Both the position numbers and the translations under genes were made by a program. From Dehalococcoidia bacterium (GTDB lineage Bacteria > Chloroflexota > Dehalococcoidia > GIF9 > AB-539-J10), in contig JAUWQI010000004.1 in NCBI GenBank assembly GCA_030611085.1, positions 1,731 to 65,730 on the forward strand: a DNA stretch of 64,000 bases. The letters are read 5' to 3'. Positions 5,515 to 63,537 of the stretch are shown one piece after another; position 1 is the first letter of the stretch, and each line of letters starts with the position of its first letter. Below the pieces are notes generated by a model that was not told the DNA's origin, did no database searches, and saw nothing but the letters and a program-made list of their open reading frames with translations.

Positions 5515-5640
5515 AAAGAAATCAATGGCAAAGGGCTTCTTGAACTTAAACCGCTTTAAGCACGGCAAGGCGATAAAGCAAAACAGCAAGCAAAGGGCTG
5601 ATTTGCAAAGCAGGAAAAAGACTAAAGGCCGTTTAAAAGT

Positions 5641-5690
5641 GTAGTTGCCCAATTTATTGGGCGAGTGTGCCTGATTCATCAGGCAACTAC
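5641..5690. repeat. Family-A structured repeat (GTAGTT-hairpin-hairpin-AACTAC)
   Basis: gtagttGCCCAAtttaTTGGGCgagtgtGCCTGATtcATCAGGCaactac. The outer 6-bp stem encloses two hairpins. It lies just 3' of the radical SAM gene. Confidence 0.85.
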
Positions 5691-5766
5691 GAAAACTTGG
5701 AGATAAATGGCTTCCAGGATACCCGAAATTGAACGGAGGTCAAAATCAAAAAGGAGATAAAACATT

Positions 5767-8643: not shown

Positions 8644-8703
8644 CTGTCATTGCGGCGAGCCGAAGGCGTGGCAGTCAGCGAAGGGGAAGCGTGGCGATCT
8701 CTC
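8644..8703. repeat. Family-B repeat unit (forward), left flank of GIY-YIG gene
   Basis: ctgtcattgcggcgagccgaaggcgtggcagtcagcgaaggggaagcgtggcgatctc. It closely matches the sequence inserted in hisC (60880-60925). Confidence 0.8.
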
Positions 8704-8989
8704 ATAATTCCTCATACAGGTCACGCAATTCTTTATTCATACCATTAACTAATTCAATCTTCTTTTGCCTCGAGCCAGCCTTAATCTGCTTCTCCCGCCA
8801 GATGGCATTTTCTATGTCCTCAAAGACCTCATAATATATCAACTTTGTAACGTTGTATTTTCTAGTAAATCCGCTAGCTAGTTTTCCTTTATGCTCATAG
8901 GCCCTTCTTTTTAAGTCATTAGTGGCGCTAGTATAAAGCACAGTGTTCCTGCTGTTAGTCATTATATAGACATCGTATTGCTTATCCAT
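8702..8989 (-). CDS. GIY-YIG nuclease family protein (small, COG2827-like)
   Basis: MDKQYDVYIMTNSRNTVLYTSATNDLKRRAYEHK...REKQIKAGSRQKK carries the GIY/YIG, Arg and Glu motifs. The upstream ORF extension (MSLRGTKCRSNL) is a translated repeat. Confidence 0.8.
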   Translation of the reverse strand: MDKQYDVYIMTNSRNTVLYTSATNDLKRRAYEHKGKLASGFTRKYNVTKLIYYEVFEDIENAIWREKQIKAGSRQKKIELVNGMNKELRDLYEEL

Positions 8990-9004
8990 AGTTATATTTT
9001 GCGA

Positions 9005-9043
9005 GAGATTGCTTCGGCACTTTGTGCCTCGCAATGACAAAGG
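9005..9043. repeat. Family-B repeat unit (inverted), right flank of GIY-YIG gene
   Basis: The reverse complement reads cctttgtcattgcgaggcacaaagtgccgaagcaatctc. Confidence 0.8.
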
Positions 9044-12154: not shown

Positions 12155-12187
12155 AATGTAAGGCTAGGGCGTTTGGCAATTCAATTT

Positions 12188-12244
12188 GTCATTCTGAGCC
12201 GCAGGCGAAGAATCTCTGAGACCCTTCGCTTCGTTCAGGGTGAC
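12188..12244. repeat. Family-B palindromic element (unit + inverted unit)
   Basis: gtcattctgagccgcaggcgaagaatctc tgag acccttcgcttcgttcagggtgac. Confidence 0.85.
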
Positions 12245-12390
12245 AATAAACATTCTTACAAGGTAATTATTGACATAAATTTGGGAACTGTCAAGAAGGA
12301 CTAAAGTAACGAAAAAAGTCCCTGGCGATGCCGTGAATTGCGACCTAGGTATTAATCAACCATAGCATTGAAACTTTAAGCCTTCAATTT

Positions 12391-14170: not shown

Positions 14171-14228
14171 AGTACACCTCCTAATTTTCTCCGAAGCTTT
14201 TTAATTTTGATTTCTCGTTCAAATCTTT

Positions 14229-14278
14229 GTAGTTGCCTGATTTATCAGGCTCGGTCGCCCAATAAATTGGGCAACTAC
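14229..14278. repeat. Family-A structured repeat (inverted orientation)
   Basis: gtagttgcctgatttatcaggctcggtcgcccaataaattgggcaactac. Confidence 0.85.
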
Positions 14279-14301
14279 ATTTTTAAACAGCCTTTTTCCC
14301 T

Positions 14302-19435: not shown

Positions 19436-19470
19436 TCTTAGCCAAACCTAAAGAGAGGCTATTTAAAAAT

Positions 19471-19521
19471 GTAGTTGCCCAATTTATTGGGCGATAAGAG
19501 TTTGATAAATCAGGCAATTAC
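19471..19521. repeat. Family-A structured repeat (slightly degenerate)
   Basis: gtagttgcccaatttattgggcgataagagtttgataaatcaggcaattac, just 3' of the FmdE-like gene. Confidence 0.8.
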
Positions 19522-19614
19522 AAAAGTTTGCGAGTGTGAAATATCCTTAATTGCCTAAGATTGAACGGAAAATCAAAATTAAACTGCCTTAAAGAAGAAC
19601 GGAGGTGATACGAG

Positions 19615-24344: not shown

Positions 24345-24884
24345 ATGCTATACGAAATGGTCTCTCAACCGCAACTCAAAGTTCTCATCGCCTGTGAGGA
24401 AATAGCTAAGGTTGTTGCCAGGCTGGCTGGCGAAATTAAAAAGGATTATCAGGGAAAACAGCCTTTATTCATTGGTGTTCTCAAAGGCTCCTTTGTATTT
24501 ATGGCTGACCTCGTTCGCCAGCTTGATTTGCCCCTGGAGATTGATTTTATCAAGCTTTCCAGTTATGGCGCTGGCAAAGAGACTTCAGGCAAAGTTAGGG
24601 TAGTTCAGGGGCTCAAGACACCCATAGAAGGCAGAGATGTTCTGGTAGTGGAGGATATTGTGGATACTGGCATCACCATTTCATTTTTGCTTAACTACTT
24701 AAAAAGGAAAAAACCTGCTTCTTTAAGACTTTGTGCTCTAACAGACAAGCCGTCCCGGCGTCGAGTTCCTGTATCCATTGATTATCTTGGCTTCAGCGTG
24801 CCTGACAAGTTTATTGTTGGCTACGGTCTTGATTTTGATGAGAAGTTTCGTTACTTGCCCGATATTTGTGAGCTTAGCTCGTAA
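24345..24884 (+). CDS. hpt: hypoxanthine phosphoribosyltransferase
   Basis: VLVVEDIVDTGITISFL PRPP loop and FIVGYGLDFDEKFRYLPDI. Confidence 0.9.
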   Translation: MLYEMVSQPQLKVLIACEEIAKVVARLAGEIKKDYQGKQPLFIGVLKGSFVFMADLVRQLDLPLEIDFIKLSSYGAGKETSGKVRVVQGLKTPIEGRDVLVVEDIVDTGITISFLLNYLKRKKPASLRLCALTDKPSRRRVPVSIDYLGFSVPDKFIVGYGLDFDEKFRYLPDICELSS

Positions 24885-24903
24885 AATAAGGCTGTTTGGG
24901 AAT

Positions 24904-24953
24904 GTAGTTGCCCAATTTATTGGGCGGGTATGCCTGATAAATCAGGCAACTAC
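24904..24953. repeat. Family-A structured repeat
   Basis: gtagttgcccaatttattgggcgggtatgcctgataaatcaggcaactac, just 3' of hpt. Confidence 0.85.
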
Positions 24954-24979
24954 AGAAATTTTCCCGGGAGGGTTAAGAA

Positions 24980-26710
24980 ATGAATTTAGCTGAACTTATT
25001 TCTGTAGCTAGAGGGAAAAAACCAGCGGATTTGCTTCTAAAGAATGCTCGCATAATAAATACCTTTGTTGGAGAAATAGAGCAGGGCAATGTAGCTATTT
25101 ATGGCGATAGGATTGCCGGCGTAGGGGATTACGACAAGGCTAAAGAAATTATCGATTTACAAGCCAGTTACTTAGCCCCAGGGCTGATTAACGGTCATAC
25201 CCACATAGAAAGCTCTATGCTTCATCCTGCCCACTATGCGCAAGCAGTAGTTCCCCACGGCACCTTAGCGGTGGTCACTGATTTACACGAAATCGCCAAT
25301 GTCTGTGGAATTGCGGGCATAAAATTTGTTATGGATTGGGCACAAAAGCTGCCGCTAGATATGCTATTTATGGTTCCTTCATGCGTGCCGGCAACTACTT
25401 TGGAGACATCAGGTGCCCAAATCAGCGCTGAGGAAATTAAAAAACTTTTAGCCTATCCCAATGTAATCGGCATGGGCGAGATGATGAACTTCCCCGGCGT
25501 GGTTAATGGCATCGAGGAGGTTTTGGATAAGATTGTTGCTTCAAAGGATAGGGTCATTGACGGGCATGCTCCCGGACTTGGTGGCAAGGATTTAAATGCC
25601 TATATGGCTACTGGCATCTTTTCTGACCATGAATCCACTACTCTGGAAGAAGGTAAGGAGAAATTGCAGAAAGGGATGTGGCTGATGATTCGAGAGGGCT
25701 CTTCGGAGAAAAACCTGGATGCCCTTCTCCCTCTGGTGACTGATAACACTTATAAAAGGTGCCTTTTTGTTGTAGATGACCGCAGTTGCTTTGATTTACT
25801 CCACGATGGTGATATCGATGCCGTGGTCAGAAAGGCTATCAGCAGGGGATTAGAGCCAGTCCGAGCAATTCAAATGGCGACAATCAATACTGCTGAGTAT
25901 TTCAGGCTCCATGATAGAGGAGGTATCGCTCCGGGTTATAAAGCCGACCTTATAACCATTACCGACCTTTCCCAATTAGAAATAGACATGGTGTTCTATA
26001 AAGGCAAGCTAGTGGCGAGGCAAGGCAAGTCTTTATTTGCCATGCCACAACTGAAAGCTGATAGCTATCAACTGACAGCTAACTCGGTGTGTCTTAAGCC
26101 TCTTACCATGGAATCACTGTCATTGCGAGCACAGCGAAGCAATCTCAGCAAAGAAAATTACCCCGTCATTGAAATCGTCCCGGGGCAAATTGTTACCAAA
26201 AAAAGAGTGGAAAAGGTAAAAGTTGAAAATGGGACAATTGTGCCTGACTTAGAAAAAGACATCTTGAAGCTCGTGGTAGTGGAAAGACACAAAGCCAGTG
26301 GCAATGTTGGTTTAGGTTTAGTTAAGGGATTCGGCTTAAAGAAGGGAGCATTAGCCTCCTCCGTGGCTCACGACTCTCACAATATAGTAGTTGTCGGCAC
26401 AAATGACCTTGATATCCTCAGAGCAATTGAGGAAATAGACAAATTACAAGGTGGGCTTGTTGTTTGCGCTAACGGCGAGGTTCTCGCCTCTTTGCCCTTG
26501 CCCATTGCTGGACTCTTGTCCTCAGAGCCTTTAGAGATGGTTGTGGCTCAGTTGGAGAAGGTAGAAAAGGCTGCAGCTAGCCTGGGCAATTTGCCTCCAG
26601 CACCTTTCTCTATCCTCTCCTTCCTCGCCTTACCCGTGGTTCCCGAATTGAGGTTAACTGATTTGGGGTTGGTGGATGTGGTGCAATTTAAGCTGATTAC
26701 GCCGCCTTAG
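24980..26710 (+). CDS. ade: adenine deaminase
   Basis: 576 aa. PGLINGHTHIESSM metal site, VIDGHAPGL and VAHDSHNIVVVG. Confidence 0.9.
   Translation: MNLAELISVARGKKPADLLLKNARIINTFVGEIEQGNVAIYGDRIAGVGDYDKAKEIIDLQASYLAPGLINGHTHIESSMLHPAHYAQAVVPHGTLAVVTDLHEIANVCGIAGIKFVMDWAQKLPLDMLFMVPSCVPATTLETSGAQISAEEIKKLLAYPNVIGMGEMMNFPGVVNGIEEVLDKIVASKDRVIDGHAPGLGGKDLNAYMATGIFSDHESTTLEEGKEKLQKGMWLMIREGSSEKNLDALLPLVTDNTYKRCLFVVDDRSCFDLLHDGDIDAVVRKAISRGLEPVRAIQMATINTAEYFRLHDRGGIAPGYKADLITITDLSQLEIDMVFYKGKLVARQGKSLFAMPQLKADSYQLTANSVCLKPLTMESLSLRAQRSNLSKENYPVIEIVPGQIVTKKRVEKVKVENGTIVPDLEKDILKLVVVERHKASGNVGLGLVKGFGLKKGALASSVAHDSHNIVVVGTNDLDILRAIEEIDKLQGGLVVCANGEVLASLPLPIAGLLSSEPLEMVVAQLEKVEKAAASLGNLPPAPFSILSFLALPVVPELRLTDLGLVDVVQFKLITPP
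26119..26146. repeat. Family-B unit embedded in frame in ade
   Basis: gtcattgcgagcacagcgaagcaatctc, translated as ..SLSLRAQRSNLS.. inside the ade ORF. Confidence 0.7.
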
Positions 26711-31622: not shown

Positions 31623-31744
31623 CTTCTTGGTGACTTTAGCGGAGTGGACCCACCCGTTCCCATCCCGAACACGGAAGTGAAACTCTCCAGCGCAGACGAT
31701 ACTTAAGGGGCGACTCTCTGGGAAAATATGTCGTTGCCAGGAAG
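31623..31744 (+). rRNA. rrf: 5S ribosomal RNA (stand-alone, no 23S upstream)
   Basis: cccacccgttcccatcccgaacacggaagtgaaac core. The terminal helix cttcttggtgac pairs with gttgccaggaag. Confidence 0.85.
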
Positions 31745-42731: not shown

Positions 42732-42790
42732 GTCACCCTGAACGGAAGTGAAGAGGAGATTCTTCGGTCGATTCGCTCCCTCAGAATGAC
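42732..42790. repeat. Family-B palindromic element
   Basis: gtcaccctgaacggaagtgaagaggagattcttcggtcgattcgctccctcagaatgac. Confidence 0.8.
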
Positions 42791-42795
42791 AAATG

Positions 42796-42847: not shown

Positions 42848-43351
42848 ATGGCGGAACTGGAAATAGAAATTGCTAAATTGATAGGGGAATGCCATGTCAA
42901 AACAGGCAAGCTATTGACCATCGGTACTATTGAGTCGGCTACTGGCGGCAGGATAGCTGATAAAATAACCAATGTTTCTGGCAGTTCCGATTATTTTAAG
43001 GGCTCTGTGGTAGCATATAGTAACGAGGCAAAAACTAATGTCGTTGGGGTAAAAAAGGGGACTATAGAAAATTATGGAGCTGTTAGCTCACAAACAGCTA
43101 TGGAAATGGCTCAAGGTGGCAGAGAACTCCTGGATGTGGATATATGCATTTCCGATACTGGCATTGCGGGTCCTTCAGGTGGCAGTCCTGAAAAGCCTGT
43201 AGGACTGTTTTATATTGGCTTAGCTAGTGAGAACGAGTGTCTGAGTCAAAAACATGTCTTTTCTGGTAATCGGGAGGAAAACAAGCGGGATGCTGCTGGG
43301 ACAGCGCTAGTTATGTTGAAGCAACATTTGCTACACTGCATTAGCAAGTGA
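42848..43351 (+). CDS. pncC: CinA C-terminal domain / nicotinamide-nucleotide amidohydrolase PncC
   Basis: TIESATGGRIADKITNVSGSSDYFKGSVVAYSNEAKTNVVGV and TGIAGPSGG. Confidence 0.8.
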   Translation: MAELEIEIAKLIGECHVKTGKLLTIGTIESATGGRIADKITNVSGSSDYFKGSVVAYSNEAKTNVVGVKKGTIENYGAVSSQTAMEMAQGGRELLDVDICISDTGIAGPSGGSPEKPVGLFYIGLASENECLSQKHVFSGNREENKRDAAGTALVMLKQHLLHCISK

Positions 43352-43365
43352 GGGTGTTTAAAAAT

Positions 43366-43416
43366 GTAGTTGCCCAATTTATTGGGCAATAAGAGCCTGA
43401 TAAATCAGGCAACTAC
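43366..43416. repeat. Family-A structured repeat
   Basis: gtagttgcccaatttattgggcaataagagcctgataaatcaggcaactac, just 3' of pncC. Confidence 0.85.
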
Positions 43417-43452
43417 AAATTAATCCTCTCTCATCAAGGGAGAGGAACTTTA

Positions 43453-46305: not shown

Positions 46306-46346
46306 CTTGTCTTGTGGGTTAGCTTCAAGGCACCTTGTTTTCGATT

Positions 46347-46372
46347 GTAGTTGCCTGATTTATCAGGCAATA
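46347..46372. repeat. Family-A half element (second hairpin only)
   Basis: gtagttgcctgatttatcaggcaata, between the convergent pscS and rimI-like genes. Confidence 0.7.
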
Positions 46373-56968: not shown

Positions 56969-58510
56969 ATGAATAACAATATGGAAAATCAACCTGTCAA
57001 GCTTGCTTTGCCCAAAGGTAGGTTCCTATCTCCTACAGCCAATCTGCTTGGTGAGATAAACCTGGGCTTCGCTGGCTATAGCAGCAAAACAAGGCGCTAT
57101 CGCCTTCAGTCAGCAAGATTTCCCTATCTCTCAGCTAAGATATTTCAGGAAAAAGATGTTCCTATTCAGGTAGCTGTAGGGAATTATGACTTGGGTATTT
57201 GCGGTTCGGATTGGATTGAAGAAGTTGTGGTGAAGTATCCTGCAGGTGCTCTGGTAAAAATGGCAGGTCTAAACTATGGTGAGGGCAGTATATATGTGGT
57301 AGCTAGCACTCAGGCGGGATTCTCTAATCTTGATGAATTATTAGCCAGGCAAAATGATTGGCGCATAGTAAGCGAGTATCCTAATTTGGCTGAAGCTTTC
57401 GCCTTAAAAAATAGAGTGAGAAGGTTCAGGATTTTCCCAGTATGGGGAGCTGCTGAAGTTTATCCCCCAGAGAGTGCCGACCTAGCTATATTGCAGGGAA
57501 AGAATGAAAGTGACCTGAAGGCTCAAGGCGTGCTCCCTTTAATGAGATTGTTTAAGGTGACTGCTTTTCTCATCGCCAATCGAGAAAGCTTAGGGAGTAA
57601 AAATCTGAGTCAAATATTGACTTGCTTAAGCAATGTCAGCTCAAGCCAAAGTAACATCACTGTGAGACAGGATAATTTCATTGCCGTGAGCCAAAGCCCT
57701 GAGCCCTTCGCCTCCTGTTATTTTGAGCGAAACGAAGAATCTCGTGGCGCTCAGGATAAACTCCGTGAAGGGGAAGCAAAGCAATCTCCCAGCAAAAGGG
57801 AAGTGACAGCGCAGCTAGCCTGGCAGTCGAAGGAAATTAAACTGGCTCTGCCTGATGGACACCAGTCTCCCCCCACTTCGCAATTTTTGAAACGAACTGG
57901 GCTTAGTCCCCTGGGATATTCTGGCAAGGCACTGAATCGCCGCCCCTCTATCAATTTAGATTGGGTTGGCATTAAGGTAATCAGACCTCAGGATATGCCT
58001 CTTCAAGTGGCCAATGGCAATTTTGATTTAGCTGTGACTGGTGAGGATTGGTTGCTGGAACATCTCTATCGTTTTCCCTCAAGTCCGGTGGCAAAGCTGC
58101 TAGACCTTGGCTTTGGCAGGGTAAAAATCGTAGCTGCAGTGAGCCGAGATATGCCCGTGGCTAATATCGCGGAACTCAGGTCGCTCGTTCAAAGTGGCGA
58201 GTTTGCTCCTTTCAGGGTCGCTTCGGAGTACATAAATATCGCCGACAAATATCTTCGAGACAACTACATTAGCCCATACAAGCTAATACCAACCTGGGGA
58301 GCAAGTGAGGCTTTCCTGCCTGAAGACGCTGATTTACTTATAGATAATACTCAAACCGGAAGGACATTGGCACAACACGGACTGAAGGTTATCGATGTGC
58401 TTTTCCAGTCCACAGCCTGCCTAATTGGCAACAAAGATAGCCTTGACTCCCGTGGTAAAAAGGAGAAGATTGAGTCCCTTATTCGGATATTTCAATCGGG
58501 GTTATTATGA
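56969..58510 (+). CDS. hisG: ATP phosphoribosyltransferase, single ORF with two tandem short-HisG-like halves
   Basis: Half 1: VKLALPKGRF...VAVGNYDLGICGSDW. Half 2: IKLALPDGHQ...VANGNFDLAVTGEDW...DLLIDNTQTGRTLAQHGL. The linker is repeat-derived. Confidence 0.75.
   Translation: MNNNMENQPVKLALPKGRFLSPTANLLGEINLGFAGYSSKTRRYRLQSARFPYLSAKIFQEKDVPIQVAVGNYDLGICGSDWIEEVVVKYPAGALVKMAGLNYGEGSIYVVASTQAGFSNLDELLARQNDWRIVSEYPNLAEAFALKNRVRRFRIFPVWGAAEVYPPESADLAILQGKNESDLKAQGVLPLMRLFKVTAFLIANRESLGSKNLSQILTCLSNVSSSQSNITVRQDNFIAVSQSPEPFASCYFERNEESRGAQDKLREGEAKQSPSKREVTAQLAWQSKEIKLALPDGHQSPPTSQFLKRTGLSPLGYSGKALNRRPSINLDWVGIKVIRPQDMPLQVANGNFDLAVTGEDWLLEHLYRFPSSPVAKLLDLGFGRVKIVAAVSRDMPVANIAELRSLVQSGEFAPFRVASEYINIADKYLRDNYISPYKLIPTWGASEAFLPEDADLLIDNTQTGRTLAQHGLKVIDVLFQSTACLIGNKDSLDSRGKKEKIESLIRIFQSGLL
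57679..57788. repeat. Family-B composite sequence embedded in frame as linker of the HisG didomain ORF
   Basis: cattgccgtgagccaaagccctgagcccttcgcctcctgttattttgagcgaaacgaagaatctcgtggcgctcaggataaactccgtgaaggggaagcaaagcaatctc. Confidence 0.75.
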
Positions 58511-59856
58511 TAAAAGTCAAAGGATTTGCTAAGGCAAAACAACTGTTGACCAGGAAAGATCTCCTGGAATCTTTCGCTGCCTCGCCACAAATAGCAACAC
58601 AAATAAAGCAAACTTTCGGGAAGGAGCTTTCTCTTCAGCAAGTAGTTGACCTTATCATAAACGAAGTTCGTAACAAAGGCGATAAGGCTCTTTTTGATTA
58701 CACTAAGAAACTGGATGGCGCCGAACTTGATTCCCTCGAAGTAAGCAGGCAGGAGGTTACCGCAGCCTACGACGAAGTGGACAAGAAGCTCATTCCGGCA
58801 CTTGAACTAGCAGCTGAAAGAATACGAAGTTTCCATCTTGCTTGTGGACATAAGGCTGGCGTAATTCCCATTGACAGGTATTTAGGACAACAGATTTGCC
58901 CCTTAAATAGGGTAGGTCTATATGTCCCCGGTGGCACTGCTGCTTATCCCTCTACAGTGTTGATGATGGCTATACCGGCTAAGGTAGCGGGTGTGAAAGA
59001 AATCATTATGGTTTCACCACCAGGAAAAGATGGTAATATCCCTGCACCTACATTAGTAGCTGCTGGCATCGCTGAGGTCAACCATATTTTCAAAGTTGGT
59101 GGTGCTCAGGCGATTGCTGCTTTAGCTTTTGGCACTGAGTCAATACCCAAAGTGGATAAAATTTGTGGCCCAGGCAACATTTTTGTGACATTGGCTAAGA
59201 AGATGGTTTATGGCACAGTAGCTATTGACGGTCTTGAAGGGCCAAGCGAGTTAGTGCTCGTAGCCGATGAGGCCGCTGACACTGTCCTTTGCGCCGCTGA
59301 CCTTTTAGCTCAAGCTGAGCATGACCCCCTGGCTTCGGTGATTTTAATTACTACCTCATCTGAATTAGCTAATCGTGTGGATAGGGAAATTGAGATACAA
59401 CTAAGAAAATTGAAGCGCCGTTCCATTGCTAGACAAGCTATTGATAGGGGAATAGCTGTAAGTGTCCATGGCATTGATGAAGCAATCGAATTGGTTAACC
59501 TTTTTGCCCCAGAGCATCTTTCCCTTATGGTATCTGATGCCTCTTCCCTGGTTTCCCGAATTCATAATGCTGGCTGTATTTTCGTTGGTGAAAATTCGCC
59601 TGTGGTTTTGGGGGATTATGTTGCTGGTCCCAGTCATGTATTGCCCACAGGCGGCAGTGCCCGTTTTAGCTCTCCCCTGGGTGTAGCGGATTTCTTAAAA
59701 GTCAGTAACATTGTTGCTTTGGATAAGGCTACTATGCAAGAGCTAAGCCAGTCAGCTATAGTGATAGCCGAGGCTGAAGGGTTGGACGCCCACGCTCAGG
59801 CAGTGGCTCTCCGTGTCATTGCAAGCAAAGCGAAGCAATCTCAACCATTTTCATAA
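58507..59856 (+). CDS. hisD: histidinol dehydrogenase
   Basis: VPGGTAAYPSTVLM, GPGNIFV, QAEHDP and the GDY..G.SHVLPT motifs. Confidence 0.9.
   Translation: MIKVKGFAKAKQLLTRKDLLESFAASPQIATQIKQTFGKELSLQQVVDLIINEVRNKGDKALFDYTKKLDGAELDSLEVSRQEVTAAYDEVDKKLIPALELAAERIRSFHLACGHKAGVIPIDRYLGQQICPLNRVGLYVPGGTAAYPSTVLMMAIPAKVAGVKEIIMVSPPGKDGNIPAPTLVAAGIAEVNHIFKVGGAQAIAALAFGTESIPKVDKICGPGNIFVTLAKKMVYGTVAIDGLEGPSELVLVADEAADTVLCAADLLAQAEHDPLASVILITTSSELANRVDREIEIQLRKLKRRSIARQAIDRGIAVSVHGIDEAIELVNLFAPEHLSLMVSDASSLVSRIHNAGCIFVGENSPVVLGDYVAGPSHVLPTGGSARFSSPLGVADFLKVSNIVALDKATMQELSQSAIVIAEAEGLDAHAQAVALRVIASKAKQSQPFS
59815..59842. repeat. Family-B unit forming the C-terminal tail of hisD
   Basis: gtcattgcaagcaaagcgaagcaatctc, translated as ..VIASKAKQSQ.. 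just before the stop. Confidence 0.7.
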
Positions 59857-59985
59857 AAAGGACGAGAGCTAAATAAAGGATTAGAAGGCAAAAATACAGA
59901 GCAAAAACTATGATAAATCCTGAGCACGAAATACGAAATCCTATTTGTTTAGGATTTAGAGTTTAGATATTAGGATTTCATAAAA

Positions 59986-61221
59986 ATGGACATAGAAAAG
60001 CTAATAAGGCCTGAACTAGCAGCTATGGGGGGTTATACTCCTATTGAGCCAATAGAGATTTTGGAACAGCGGGCTGAGAGAAAAATAATAAAGCTTGACG
60101 GCAATGAAAATCCTTATGGTTGCTCCCCCAATGTCTATCAGTCTCTAGCTAGTTACCCTTACTATCATATTTACCCTGACCCGGAACAAAGGGAGTTGAG
60201 GCAAGCTCTGGAGAAATACACCGGCTTAGACTCTCGGCACATCGTTTGTGGCAGCGGCAGTGACGAATTGATTGACCTTATTCTGAGGCTCTTTCTTAGG
60301 CCTGGGGATGAGGTTATCAATTGTTCACCGACATTCGGCATGTATCCCTTTAATACTGAGCTTTGTGGAGGCAGAGTGGTTGATGTACCCAGAGATGAGA
60401 ATTTTGCCATTGATATAGCTGGTATTAAAAAAACGCTGAATGAAAAAACAAAGGTCATTTTTGTCGCCTCACCTAACAATCCTACAGGCAATACCATTAC
60501 TGAGCAGGAAGTTATGAAGCTTGTTGATACTGGAAGAATCGTGGTGGTAGATGAGGCTTACTTTGAGTTTAGCGGTGTAACTATGGCTAACTTGGTGCCT
60601 AACTACCCCAACCTGATAGTGCTGCGCACCTTTAGTAAATGGGCGGGGCTGGCTGGCTTAAGAATAGGCTATGGCTTTTTCCCTGTTGAAATTGCTGGCT
60701 ATCTAATGAAAATTAAGCCACCATATAATATCAATGTAGCAGCGCAAGCAGCCGTGCTAGCTTCTCTGGCGGATATAGATTATCTTCGTGACAATGTGGC
60801 AAAGATAGTTGATGAACGAGAAAGGTTATTTGCTAAGCTAAATGTCGTTGCGGTGAGCCGAAGCCCTGAGCCAAAGTTGCGAGCCGAAGGTGTGGCAATC
60901 AGTGAAGGGGAAGCGAAGCAATCTCATTGGCTAAAGCCCTACTCCTCCAGTGCCAATTTTATTCTTTGCTCCTTGCGCTGTCACTCTGAGCCCTTCACTC
61001 CTTGTCATTCTGAGGGAGCGAAACGACCGAAGAATCTCGCTCAGGATAAACTCCACGAAGAATCTTATGCCAGAGAAATCTGGCGACAGTTACAAAAAAA
61101 AGGTATTTTTGTTCGTTACTTTGATACTCCAAGATTAAAAGATTGTCTGCGAATGAGCGTGGGCAAGCCTGAAGATACCGATGCCTTAATTGAGGCTTTG
61201 AAGGAGGTTAAACATGTTTGA
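59986..61221 (+). CDS. hisC: histidinol-phosphate aminotransferase (with two repeat-derived insertions)
   Basis: LDGNENPYG, ASPNNPTG, RTFSKWAGLAGLRIGY (PLP Lys), SSANFIL and LRMSVG. Confidence 0.85.
   Translation: MDIEKLIRPELAAMGGYTPIEPIEILEQRAERKIIKLDGNENPYGCSPNVYQSLASYPYYHIYPDPEQRELRQALEKYTGLDSRHIVCGSGSDELIDLILRLFLRPGDEVINCSPTFGMYPFNTELCGGRVVDVPRDENFAIDIAGIKKTLNEKTKVIFVASPNNPTGNTITEQEVMKLVDTGRIVVVDEAYFEFSGVTMANLVPNYPNLIVLRTFSKWAGLAGLRIGYGFFPVEIAGYLMKIKPPYNINVAAQAAVLASLADIDYLRDNVAKIVDERERLFAKLNVVAVSRSPEPKLRAEGVAISEGEAKQSHWLKPYSSSANFILCSLRCHSEPFTPCHSEGAKRPKNLAQDKLHEESYAREIWRQLQKKGIFVRYFDTPRLKDCLRMSVGKPEDTDALIEALKEVKHV
60844..60925. repeat. Family-B composite insertion 1 inside hisC (in frame)
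   Basis: gtcgttgcggtgagccgaagccctgagccaaagttgcgagccgaaggtgtggcaatcagtgaaggggaagcgaagcaatctc. Confidence 0.75.
60980..61064. repeat. Family-B composite insertion 2 inside hisC (in frame)
   Basis: gtcactctgagcccttcactccttgtcattctgagggagcgaaacgaccgaagaatctcgctcaggataaactccacgaagaatc. Confidence 0.75.
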
Positions 61222-61804
61222 AAGAAAAGCGAAAGTAACTCGTGAAACTGCGGAAACAAGTATTAAAGTGGAACTAAACATCGATGGCAGTGGGCAATTT
61301 GAAATTGCTACTGGAATAAGAATGTTCGACCACTTTCTCACTCATCTAGCGCAGCATGGAGCATTTGACATAACGCTCTCAGCTACAGGCGCTGACCAGC
61401 ATCATGTAGTTGAGGATGTAGCTATTTCCTTAGGTAGGGCTTTCAGCCAGGCGTTAGGAAAAAAACTAGGCATTACTCGAATGGCACATGCTGTCGTGCC
61501 TATGGATGAAGCGTTAGCAGCAGTAGTGATAGATATAGGGGGAAGGGGTTATAGTGTAATAGAGGCATCCTTTACCAGGGCTAACATAGGTGACTTATGT
61601 GCTGATTTAGTTCGCCACTTCTTAGCTTCCTTCGCCTCTGAAGCCAAAATCAACCTTCACGCCAAAGTAATCACTGGCGAAAATGACCACCACAAGGCTG
61701 AAGCTTTATTCAAAGCCTTAGGTCGAGCGTTGGATTCCGCCACCCGCATTGACGAGCGAATTGTGGGGCGAATTCCCAGCACCAAAGAGGTTATCGAGGG
61801 ATAG
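61214..61804 (+). CDS. hisB: imidazoleglycerol-phosphate dehydratase
   Basis: RETAETSI, FDHFL, DQHHVVED, HAKVITGENDHHKAEALFKALGRAL. Confidence 0.9.
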   Translation: MFERKAKVTRETAETSIKVELNIDGSGQFEIATGIRMFDHFLTHLAQHGAFDITLSATGADQHHVVEDVAISLGRAFSQALGKKLGITRMAHAVVPMDEALAAVVIDIGGRGYSVIEASFTRANIGDLCADLVRHFLASFASEAKINLHAKVITGENDHHKAEALFKALGRALDSATRIDERIVGRIPSTKEVIEG

Positions 61805-61871: not shown

Positions 61872-61946
61872 TGGCTCCCCGGGCAGGATTCGAACCTGCA
61901 ACCAAGCGGTTAACAGCCGCCTACTCTACCATTGAGCTACCGGGGA
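61872..61946 (-). tRNA. tRNA-Asn (GTT)
   Basis: Hand-folded cloverleaf: TCCCCGG/CCGGGGA acceptor, anticodon loop CTGTTAA, TTCGAAT T-loop, CCA encoded. Confidence 0.85.
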
Positions 61947-61957
61947 ATATCCTTATT

Positions 61958-62031
61958 TGGCTGCCGAGCCTGGATTCGAACCAGGGCTTAAGGATCCAAA
62001 GTCCTCCGTGCTACCACTACACAACTCGGCA
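61958..62031 (-). tRNA. tRNA-Gln (TTG)
   Basis: Hand-folded: TGCCGAG/CTCGGCA acceptor (U1-A72), anticodon loop CTTTGGA, TTCGAAT T-loop, CCA encoded. Confidence 0.85.
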
Positions 62032-62044
62032 CAATCCAATTTCG

Positions 62045-62129
62045 TGCCGAAGGTCGGACTCGAACCGACACGAGAGTCGCCCCCCAACAGTTTTTGAGAC
62101 TGCCGCGTCTACCATTCCGCCACTCCGGC
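62045..62129 (-). tRNA. tRNA-Leu (CAA)
   Basis: Hand-folded: GCCGGAG acceptor, anticodon loop CTCAAAA, long variable arm, TTCGAGT T-loop, no encoded CCA. Confidence 0.8.
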
Positions 62130-62139
62130 ATTTAAAAAG

Positions 62140-62211
<72 letters not shown>

Positions 62212-63464: not shown

Positions 63465-63537
<73 letters not shown>

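Follow-up and report, generated by a model that had tools for sequence, protein, structure and literature searches.

In-frame copies of a TGTC-tagged hairpin repeat in hisC, hisD and other housekeeping genes of a Dehalococcoidia bacterium

Small palindromic repeats that reside within protein-coding genes in frame are famous from Rickettsia, where they were described as Rickettsia palindromic elements (RPEs; Ogata et al. 2000, 2002) and where, according to the summaries in PMC10969869 and PMC3733652, R. conorii has 44 RPE insertions. RPE-4 and RPE-6 of R. conorii have been assigned, together with the dRS3 element of Neisseria, to the superfamily of CGTC-tagged repetitive extragenic palindromic (REP) sequences (Di Nocera, De Gregorio and Rocco 2013; PMC3733652), which have a stem of 8-9 bp, a loop of 4-5 nt, a consensus tail CCA and the tag variants TGTC (common) and CCTC. 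Hairpin repeats known as NTS or SRM have been linked to Ssn single-stranded-DNA nucleases (Chenal et al. 2025; PMC11893778), in a paper where in-frame intragenic copies are not discussed (the terms 'intragenic' and 'open reading' occur 0 times). Here we analyse a repeat with features of all these systems, which lies in the reading frames of the histidine biosynthesis genes hisC and hisD in a 64,000-nt stretch of DNA (hereafter the window) from a free-living sediment bacterium of the class Dehalococcoidia. The genome holding the window, G000, is a metagenome-assembled genome (MAG) of 1.16 Mb in 30 contigs, with 45% G+C and 83% completeness; the window corresponds to G000:C17:1731-65730 (C standing for contig), and genomes of relatives are labelled G001 onward.

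We consider it likely that the unusual parts of HisC and HisD are copies of a single abundant TGTC-tagged hairpin repeat family of REP- or SRM-like character. The repeats would spread as selfish DNA, most likely via a single-stranded DNA route involving a small Ssn-like GIY-YIG nuclease whose gene they flank. The pattern of copies in genes shows which of them survive: those that add a multiple of three bases and no stop codon, that occupy loops, linkers between domains or termini, and whose orientation and frame give a hydrophilic, flexible peptide, such as CHSEGAKRPKNL, VIASEAKQS or SLRAKRSNL. In hisC, two such copies occupy two loops of the C-terminal small domain, and in hisD a copy has displaced the last few codons, the open frame continuing to the next stop.

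Comparison with solved structures delimits the two blocks in HisC (table 1). The best match in the PDB is Medicago HISN6 (8bj4, E 8e-86), and HisC residues 1-288, 314-334 and 365-406 align to positions 4-293, 294-314 and 319-360 of its chain; because the alignment breaks into these three pieces, the blocks are insertions of about 25 and 26 residues. They bracket the conserved LKPYSSSANFIL strands (..HWLKPYSSSANFILCSLR..), keep the frame and are followed by a normal HisC C-terminus, as had been claimed in an initial annotation made from the letters of the window, whose coordinates, peptides and sequences for both blocks and for the HisD tail proved exact on re-reading. The pyridoxal phosphate (PLP)-lysine motif FSKW and other invariant residues are retained, and no second hisC was found in G000. 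Block 2 (85 nt) has 16 further copies in the genome, with at least 70% of its length covered and 85-93% identity, and its central unit is 97% complementary to an inverted copy at 42756-42792. Part of block 1 (60879-60925) matches the unit to the left of the GIY-YIG gene (8655-8701) over 47 nt, a resemblance likewise pointed out in the initial annotation.

Among HisC homologues, the 120 closest ones of the protein collection (351-413 aa, with a baseline of 359-362 aa) have extra material at no more than four places. Site 1, after residue 285, is filled in 3/120 homologues, two of which hold a simple unit read (S/G)VIAS(K/G)AKQSH, and other genera have KELE in place of the insert. Site 2, after residue 334, is filled in 73-74 homologues with varied content, C-terminal extensions occur in 38, and a single sequence has a duplication. 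Unfilled, site 2 reads CSLPEGKAKEI; the filled states add 7-50 residues drawn from a small shared vocabulary (CHSE.., ..AKRPKNL, VIASEAKQS, AQGKLREES). At the DNA level, alignment reveals empty sites in G003, G010, G012, G018 and G019 and filled ones in G000, G001, G007, G008, G011 and G015. The inserts of G001, a member of the same genus, are longer than those of G000 (48 versus 27 aa at site 1 and 39 versus 29 aa at site 2), and the frame is kept, since the differences equal 21 and 10 whole codons. The blocks are not an assembly artefact, because relatives whose genomes were assembled independently have insertions at these sites too. The homologue P0021 (JGI) has an exact 30-residue tandem duplication (IVVVDEAYFEFSNVT..NLIVLR) after residue 184, in the PLP-binding core, which represents either an assembly artefact or a disrupted gene.

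An AlphaFold2 model of HisC, built on the alignment of the 120 homologues, has a predicted local distance difference test score (pLDDT) below 50 in four segments, 15-29, 217-225, 293-312 and 333-357, the last two being the inserts. The predicted order of elements is a helix (264-290), coil with insert 1, two strands (316-318 and 325-330), coil with insert 2 and a helix (361-371). The insertion sites thus fall in loops, where the initial annotation expected them. It had further suggested that the peptides might fold as neutral surface hairpins; this is borne out only in part, the inserts being predicted to be disordered rather than folded.

In HisD the repeat makes up the C-terminus, which reads ..ALRVIASKAKQSQPFS followed by the stop codon. 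Homology between solved HisD structures and the query stops at residues ~437-441. A total of 87 of 120 close homologues end in ..ERRL(K/E) or at most two residues beyond it, ..ERRLK being the baseline end, while 27 share the sequence ..ALRVIASEAKQS.., continued by extensions of variable content, and on this distribution the unit has replaced the final ~5 native codons of hisD in a whole clade. The HisD tail of G001 comprises ~60 aa and is built of repeats.

The repeat itself, in its simple form, consists of TGTC, a 5-bp arm (ATTCT, ATTGC or ACCCT), an inner part GAGC-GAA-GCGA or a longer inner stem (e.g. GAGGGAGCGAAGCGACCGA), the complementary arm and CTC. Counts of k-mers and pattern searches revealed ~217 units with perfect stems in the genome, including 124 with ATTCT, 43 with ATTGC and 41 with ACCCT arms, and profile searches with nhmmer retrieved 248 units with E below 0.01 and 318 with E below 1; the total in the 1.16 Mb is put at about 250-330. 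Consensus units begin with (A/C)TGTCA, and the 10-mers GTCATTCTGA, GTCATTGCGA and GTCACCCTGA occur 169, 66 and 51 times, respectively. The arm types match in 198 of 200 cases where a 5' arm has a 3' arm within 32 nt, and because of this covariation the hairpin is to be seen as the conserved feature. When the blocks and units are folded as DNA, their energies do not stand out from those of shuffled sequences (z from -0.26 to +1.2), so the case for the hairpin rests on the covariation of the arms. The same modules also make up longer forms (36, ~55 and ~85 nt); two of them are recurrent standard forms, namely the ~55-nt double hairpin (hisC block 1 and the unit beside the GIY-YIG gene) and the ~85-nt composite (hisC block 2). 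Since both recur elsewhere as standard units, nesting need not mean successive hits, and we set aside the notion of nested insertions into hairpin loops as separate events. Inverted dimers exist as well (e.g. 12180-12247).

The family reaches far beyond Dehalococcoidia. An exact 28-nt ATTCT unit, TGTCATTCTGAGC(R)(H)AGCGAAGAATCTC, is present in more than a dozen phyla among the matches listed, which come from Chloroflexota, Nitrospirota, Acidobacteriota, Verrucomicrobiota, Bacteroidota, Clostridia, Saccharimonadales, Cyanobacteria, Planctomycetota, delta- and gamma-proteobacteria, Poribacteria and others, and include the cultured Pedobacter nototheniae and Calothrix PCC 7716/7103. Such nucleotide identity across phyla implies horizontal spread or a very strong constraint imposed by a recognizing enzyme.

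Mapping the 248 units onto open reading frames (ORFs) places 149 of them between genes, 15 across an ORF end, 52 inside ORFs of at least 150 aa and 5 at most 15 codons from a stop codon; the remaining 27 are N-terminal or lie in short ORFs and are ambiguous. The internal and C-terminal units occupy 46 ORFs, and about 4% of the genes of the genome carry units in their reading frame. All 40 carrier ORFs compared with Pfam are recognizable genes and, with HisC and HisD included, 42/42 are intact. They encode, among others, IleRS, PheT, ProRS, TilS, MnmA, two MiaB-like enzymes, TruA, the CCA-adding enzyme and FtsY; RecG, Mfd, RadA, PolA, BirA, NadK, PurH, PurC, CarA, PyrK, DapF and homoserine dehydrogenase; and a GlmM-like PGM, PGI, PdxT, HypF, HypD, Cmk and Ade. 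Internal units are mostly situated between Pfam domains, for instance in IleRS, BirA, NadK, TilS, MiaB, FtsY, Ade and CarA. HypF (C5:46266-48800), Mfd (C27:38927-42469), DapF (C29:10269-11198) and PyrK (C3:6898-7902) have at least three units each, PyrK with a long run of stacked repeat peptides (..RSPCHSEPFTVIASEAKQSHLAQDKLREESHPSEQAPRSNL..).

Frame-breaking copies were sought as repeat patches between ORFs of the same strand, with the stop codon of the upstream ORF in or next to the patch and the frame of the downstream ORF open into it. The screen returned 13 of 86 patches, and none of the 13 is a split gene when the sequences are read by eye; the candidates were rejected as distinct full-length neighbours, such as Pfk/aldolase, ArgD/ArgG, Tpi/MiaA and Adk/Map. 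In-frame carriers therefore far outnumber detectable disruptions, there being no clear frame-breaking case, and the insertion reading withstands the refuting condition named in the initial annotation, that intragenic copies disrupt frames equally often. Units are often located exactly at gene junctions (C15:101601-101675, C18:7668-7698, C6:16807-16836, C29:9303-9331, C7:30943-30971 and C28:2172-2196), where they provide C-terminal residues and stop codons, as in ArgD (..MSLRA-stop), a dGTPase-like protein (..ATLRSQ-stop) and the tail of Cmk, or apparent N-terminal extensions, as in MiaA, Map and a nitroreductase-like gene.

The way in which the coding copies are read is far from random. Relative to the gene, 41 intragenic units have the same and 11 the opposite orientation (binomial p=3.6e-5), in contrast to 49:44 for intergenic units between co-directional genes (Fisher p=0.002). 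Stop codons cannot explain this bias, because each orientation has two open frames (three versus two for ATTGC-type units). Among ATTCT-type units, 17 are read as CHSERSEES/CHSEGAKRPKNL (mean hydropathy -2.0/-1.4) and three as VILSEAKNL (+0.7; p=0.003), and ATTGC-type units are mostly read as SLRAKRSNL (7) or VIASEAKQS (5); reverse frames would yield more hydrophobic peptides of the RFFASLRMT or DCFASLAMT type. As the bias is a property of coding copies and not of intergenic ones, it argues for a filter acting on the peptide, and the combined preference for orientation and frame is the pattern that selection for hydrophilic, flexible loop peptides would be expected to leave.

The situation is reminiscent of RPEs in that small palindromic repeats have inserted in frame into numerous housekeeping genes that are unrelated to one another (at least 46 ORFs here), in a ~1.2-Mb genome, at places where the fold tolerates them (in HisC, predicted coil between secondary-structure elements), and in similar classes of carriers (tRNA synthetases, pseudouridine synthase, PolA and other repair genes). 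The classic RPE-1, as summarised in the sources cited above, is ~100-150 bp long and has a conserved peptide, whereas the unit described here measures 28-36 nt, with composites reaching ~85-110 nt, and the hosts of RPEs are obligate intracellular bacteria, unlike the free-living bacterium studied here. With CGTC-tagged REPs the family shares an unpaired 5' tag (TGTC here), hundreds of copies, inverted dimers, a mostly intergenic location (149/248) with a minority of copies inside ORFs (52/248), the supply of stop codons by some copies and the frequency of repair or tRNA genes among the genes hit. The hairpin itself fits only in part: its stem begins with A-T and T-A and it has a short loop and an unpaired 3' tail, but there are only five contiguous Watson-Crick pairs, followed by tandem G-A/A-G, an inner stem of 2-5 bp and a GAA loop, and the tail is CTC rather than CCA. 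The parallel with Rickettsia drawn in the initial annotation is likely to be more than analogy: hairpins with TGTC/CGTC tags make up the superfamily that embraces RPE-4/6 and dRS3/NTS (PMC3733652, PMC11893778), the link to RPEs being the assignment of RPE-4/6 to CGTC REPs (PMC3733652). In the papers searched we found neither a CGTC-type family from Chloroflexota nor a paper describing in-frame repeat insertion in Dehalococcoidia.

The GTAG-tagged REP/BIME sequences with their RAYT (TnpA-REP) enzymes resemble our case as small mosaic hairpin repeats tied to a dedicated enzyme acting on single-stranded hairpins; they differ in the tag, GTAG, and in the enzyme, a HUH Y1 transposase. A GTAG-tagged family (GTAGTTGCC..) is present in G000 too and is distinct from the repeats of hisC and hisD. 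A second repeat family, unrelated to the TGTC units and with about 60 genome copies, (T)GTAGTTGCCCAATTTATTGGGC .. GCCTGATAAATCAGGCAACTAC, has a GTAG tag and two hairpins and looks like a GTAG-type REP/BIME; in the window its copies are found at 5621-5694, 14220-14297, 19451-19524, 24884-24957, 43346-43419 and 46345-46368. A classical miniature inverted-repeat transposable element, with its terminal inverted repeats and the target-site duplication made on insertion, does not fit as a model, HisC sites 1 and 2 exhibiting replacement of ~12 nt and no target-site duplication.

A candidate link to a nuclease is provided by the sole small GIY-YIG gene of the genome (its protein has a single tblastn match), which, like ssnA in the NTS-ssnA-NTS architecture, encodes a single-domain protein of ~95 aa and has its own hairpins on both sides (table 1). 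The GIY-YIG homologue of G007 is adjoined by a unit with a near-identical GGCAC-N3-GTGCC loop (one base different), and those of G010, G015 and G027 have TGTC hairpins on both sides. In G027, which belongs to another family and whose homologue is 60% identical, the arms read ATTCC/GGAAT and come nearer to the Neisseria NTS, so that in the one divergent lineage examined the arm sequence changes along with the nuclease lineage. The units keep GTC before and C after the palindrome, the positions critical for cleavage and binding by SsnA (PMC11893778), and share with NTS also the ATT.. start of the stem and the hundreds of genomic copies. Ssn nucleases cleave their repeat site-specifically and solely as single-stranded DNA; the 95-aa protein encoded here is a candidate of this kind, to which Pfam assigns just the generic GIY-YIG domain and for which NCBIfam has no match.

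Several observations weigh against the interpretation favoured here. The published degenerate SRM motif, HGTCWYN(0-2)YYVSBRHN(0-5)WNVSBRGN(0-2)RNCYNB, matches only two sites in the genome, the stems ATTCT-GAG and ATTGC-GAG violating its YYVS positions, and we therefore do not file the units as SRM in the strict sense. Among 41 relatives, presence of the GIY-YIG gene is not significantly associated with the number of units, counted for the ATTGC type only (6/12 versus 7/29, p=0.15), and the near-complete G005, G023 and G025 have many units and no detectable homologue of the nuclease. No target-site duplication is seen in comparisons of filled and empty HisC sites 1 and 2, where ~12 native bases are replaced, and the predicted folding energies of the blocks are no better than those of shuffled sequences (z from +0.15 to +1.2). 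Translation of the inserts into protein is proposed, mobility of the repeats is something that we infer, and the gene map consists of crude ORF calls (1122 ORFs covering 87% of the genome). Finally, the HisC model is mediocre overall (mean pLDDT 71): in a Foldseek search it retrieves HisC structures on top (E 4e-32) with TM-scores of only 0.42-0.47 (8bj3) and a root-mean-square deviation of ~17 A, so its global geometry is unreliable. We consequently used only its confidence and secondary-structure profile, and the loop placement rests on the sequence alignment and the predicted secondary structure.

HisC site 2 was traced on a tree of the HisC core from which the insert columns had been stripped. 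Its filled or empty state requires at least 12 changes, at least five of them forced by well-supported branches, and its content type requires 38. The site is a recurrent, long-lived hotspot: lineages have acquired elements there, dropped them and exchanged them with one another. In a sister pair supported at 99%, P0004 is filled and P0114 is empty, and their DNA differs by a 93-nt composite in place of about 12 nt, with no target-site duplication, a pattern that transposition explains no better than recombination or copying from a template during repair.

It is possible, if on the whole unlikely, that no transposition is involved and that copies arrive by illegitimate recombination, by recombination guided by microhomology or by gene conversion from other copies, at landing pads resembling the arms, with the nuclease at most making nicks. 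Such a process would accord with the replacement of ~12 native nt at both HisC sites and the end of hisD, with the swapping of the central unit (CHSEGAKRPKNL versus VIASEAKQS) between otherwise alike flanking modules across lineages, and with the existence of repeat-rich relatives devoid of the nuclease. Empty sites encode C-S-..-(E)AKEI, in codons partly like both arms, and that of P0114, TGTTCTGTCCTTAATGGTCGAGCGAAGGAAATCT, is more unit-like than >99% of random genome windows, although it may be a deletion scar. The other empty sites resemble the arms weakly (three of six at about the 94th percentile), and two of six show no resemblance; arm mimicry by the empty site was hence set aside as a weak and inconsistent signal. 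Whole 85-nt composites with defined ends moreover recur at unrelated loci, and the units-nuclease-units architecture is conserved, with arms that differ along with the nuclease (ATTCC beside the 60%-identical homologue of G027, the one divergent lineage examined), all of which speaks against this alternative. A bolder proposal, which we put forward as doubtful, is that the TGTC hairpins are non-autonomous partners of a minimal GIY-YIG (Ssn-like) system acting on single-stranded DNA that re-targets the same protein loops, where native codons (Cys-Ser ... Glu-Ala-Lys-Glu-Ile) or earlier copies mimic the arms.

A peptide that is a mere by-product, with the intragenic hairpins kept for a function in nucleic acids (mRNA stability, pausing of translation between folding units, or a site in DNA for a nuclease or for replication), seems improbable to us. 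Stems do stay complementary inside genes, few units in the genome score as well as the central one of block 2, the HisD unit is conserved in the 27 homologues mentioned above and the exact 28-nt unit recurs in the phyla listed. Between G000 and G008, which represent different genera, the site-2 element is also better conserved (79/87, 91%) than the flanking hisC codons (57/72, 79%; p=0.04). Yet within the genus no excess is apparent (72/87, 83%, with 83%, 86% and 78% in individual segments, versus 85-91% in the flanks), and conversion by other copies could equally produce conservation; constraint or conversion at the nucleotide level is only suggestive, and extra conservation of the intragenic unit, seen in one pair of genera only, was set aside. 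Content, length and even presence of the inserts vary between sister lineages, folding energies are unremarkable, and the bias in orientation and frame, confined to coding copies, points to the peptide.

The remaining alternatives fare worse. That the carriers are decaying pseudogenes or artefacts of MAG assembly, with accidentally open frames, might be suspected in a 30-contig, 83% complete MAG, repeats being a classic cause of misassembly, but it is hardly credible given that the frames stay open over 411 and 449 codons with Pfam models matched almost full length, that invariant catalytic positions are retained in an operon complete for hisG-D-C-B, that all 42 tested carriers are intact and that dozens of assemblies made independently (JGI, ENA, NCBI, Logan) have these insertion sites filled as well. 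Removal of the inserts after transcription or translation in the manner of introns or inteins, yielding normal mature enzymes, is a formal possibility raised in the initial annotation, in whose favour there is little but the Cys codon that opens block 2, and is the least credible of all, since the inserts comprise just 27-29 aa (known inteins are several times longer), a search of 57500-61400 against Rfam, with its intron models, has no match up to E<=1, and the boundaries and content of the inserts differ among relatives. Under the favoured interpretation, i.e. tolerated copies of a hairpin repeat, the insert-bearing enzymes are very probably functional and the added peptides passengers, as can be gathered from the intact motifs, the single gene copy and the conservation in relatives.

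The his row hisG-hisD-hisC-hisB is intact within the window, with Pfam models matched full-length (table 1). Together with adenine deaminase (ade) and hisG, four genes within 35 kb carry repeats, the number given in the initial annotation. In Ade the unit falls at residue 379, between the domains Amidohydro_1 (64-345) and Adenine_deam_C (403-571). In hisG, two short-form HisG units are fused in tandem within one 513-aa ORF, an arrangement conserved as open frames of 463-530 aa in 23 of 24 relatives across the order, with the linker alone unaligned; the first half may have a HisZ-like regulatory role. Alignment with hisG relatives is confined to residues ~3-237 and ~276-512, and their frames have 463-504 aa versus 513 aa here. 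In G011, hisD overlaps hisC by 4 nt, in contrast to the repeat-bearing spacer of G000, whose motif resembles GGAAATCCTAAGCACGAAATACGAAATGCTAAAC at C3:~36.8 kb of the same genome and may represent a third small repeat. A cluster of four tRNA genes lies on the minus strand just downstream of hisB (61875-62211); one plus-strand tRNA gene is found at 63465-63537 and a 5S rRNA gene at 31626-31742.

Table 1. Coordinates of repeat units and associated genes, counted from the first position of the window.
Feature	Position	Strand	Details
Single-domain GIY-YIG nuclease gene, 95 aa, candidate Ssn-like partner	8702-8989	-	PF01541 only, E 9e-14
Double-hairpin unit adjoining the GIY-YIG stop codon	8646-8701	+	87% identical to part of hisC block 1 (D13)
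ATTGC-type unit, inverted (TGTCATTGCGAGGCACAAAGTGCCGAAGCAATCTCT on minus strand), immediately 5' of GIY-YIG start	9004-9039	-	20.9 bits; I8
ATTGC-type unit in inter-domain linker of adenine deaminase, read SLSLRAQRSNL	26118-26146	+	29.5 bits, E 1e-6
hisG	56969-58510		Pfam full-length
Repeat block in linker joining the two HisG halves	57686-57790 (about)	+	Repeat families D7, D8, D11, D17
hisD, histidinol dehydrogenase, 449 aa, repeat-derived C-terminal tail	58507-59856	+	PF00815 matched 10-411/411
Single ATTGC-type hairpin unit TGTCATTGCAAGCAAAGCGAAGCAATCTC in hisD, read (R)VIASKAKQS, then QPFS and stop	59814-59842 (29 nt)	+	nhmmer 26.5 bits, E 9e-6 vs genome
hisD-hisC spacer, 129 nt, with further short repeat motif AAATCCTGAGCACGAAATACGAAATCC	59857-59985	+	
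hisC, histidinol-phosphate aminotransferase, 411 aa (relatives' baseline 359-362 aa)	59986-61221	+	PF00155 matched 33-405
HisC site 1 (block 1), double-hairpin ATTGC-type element, 5' arm GTCGTTGCG, 3' arm GAAGCAATCTC, extra inner material	60843-60925	+	Read VVAVSRSPEPKLRAEGVAISEGEAKQS, 27 aa, residues 287-313
HisC site 2 (block 2), ~85-nt composite (half arm, full unit, inverted half arm, 3' arm)	60979-61065	+	Read CHSEPFTPCHSEGAKRPKNLAQDKLHEES, 29 aa, residues 332-360
Central long-loop unit TGTCATTCTGAGGGAGCGAAACGACCGAAGAATCTC of block 2, outer 5-bp stem intact	61003-61038	+	43.8 bits, E 2e-11
hisB	61214-61804		Pfam full-length

Events of this kind have already been described, as Rickettsia RPEs, intragenic GTAG and CGTC REPs and Ssn-associated hairpins, and the initial reading of the HisC and HisD peptides as tolerated, RPE-like in-frame insertions is supported and was, if anything, understated. 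What this case adds is the scale (about 4% of genes), the filter on orientation and frame, and, in HisC, a hotspot of recurrent insertion sampled in many homologues. 'Selfish DNA in proteins' that keeps the frame is as common in a free-living, streamlined Dehalococcoidia genome as in the Rickettsia that made it famous. The repeat family concerned is common to many phyla even in its nucleotide sequence and has a probable tie to the Ssn nucleases, which were described only recently. The persisting copies offer a quantitative view of what is retained, namely copies in loops and linkers, in one orientation and in hydrophilic frames. For annotation, it follows that CHSEGAKRPKNL, VIASEAKQS and SLRAKRSNL in metagenomic proteins should be taken as repeat-derived. 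HisC site 2, filled, emptied and refilled many times, amounts to a natural experiment on the tolerance of loops to insertion and on the insertion mechanism of orphan repeats. If the minimal GIY-YIG system proposed above were real, sites like this one would be self-perpetuating landing pads, at which the exchange of modules would continuously remodel the surface loops of housekeeping enzymes, and the identical 28-nt unit in more than a dozen phyla among the matches listed would make this a general, so far unrecognized route of protein-loop evolution.

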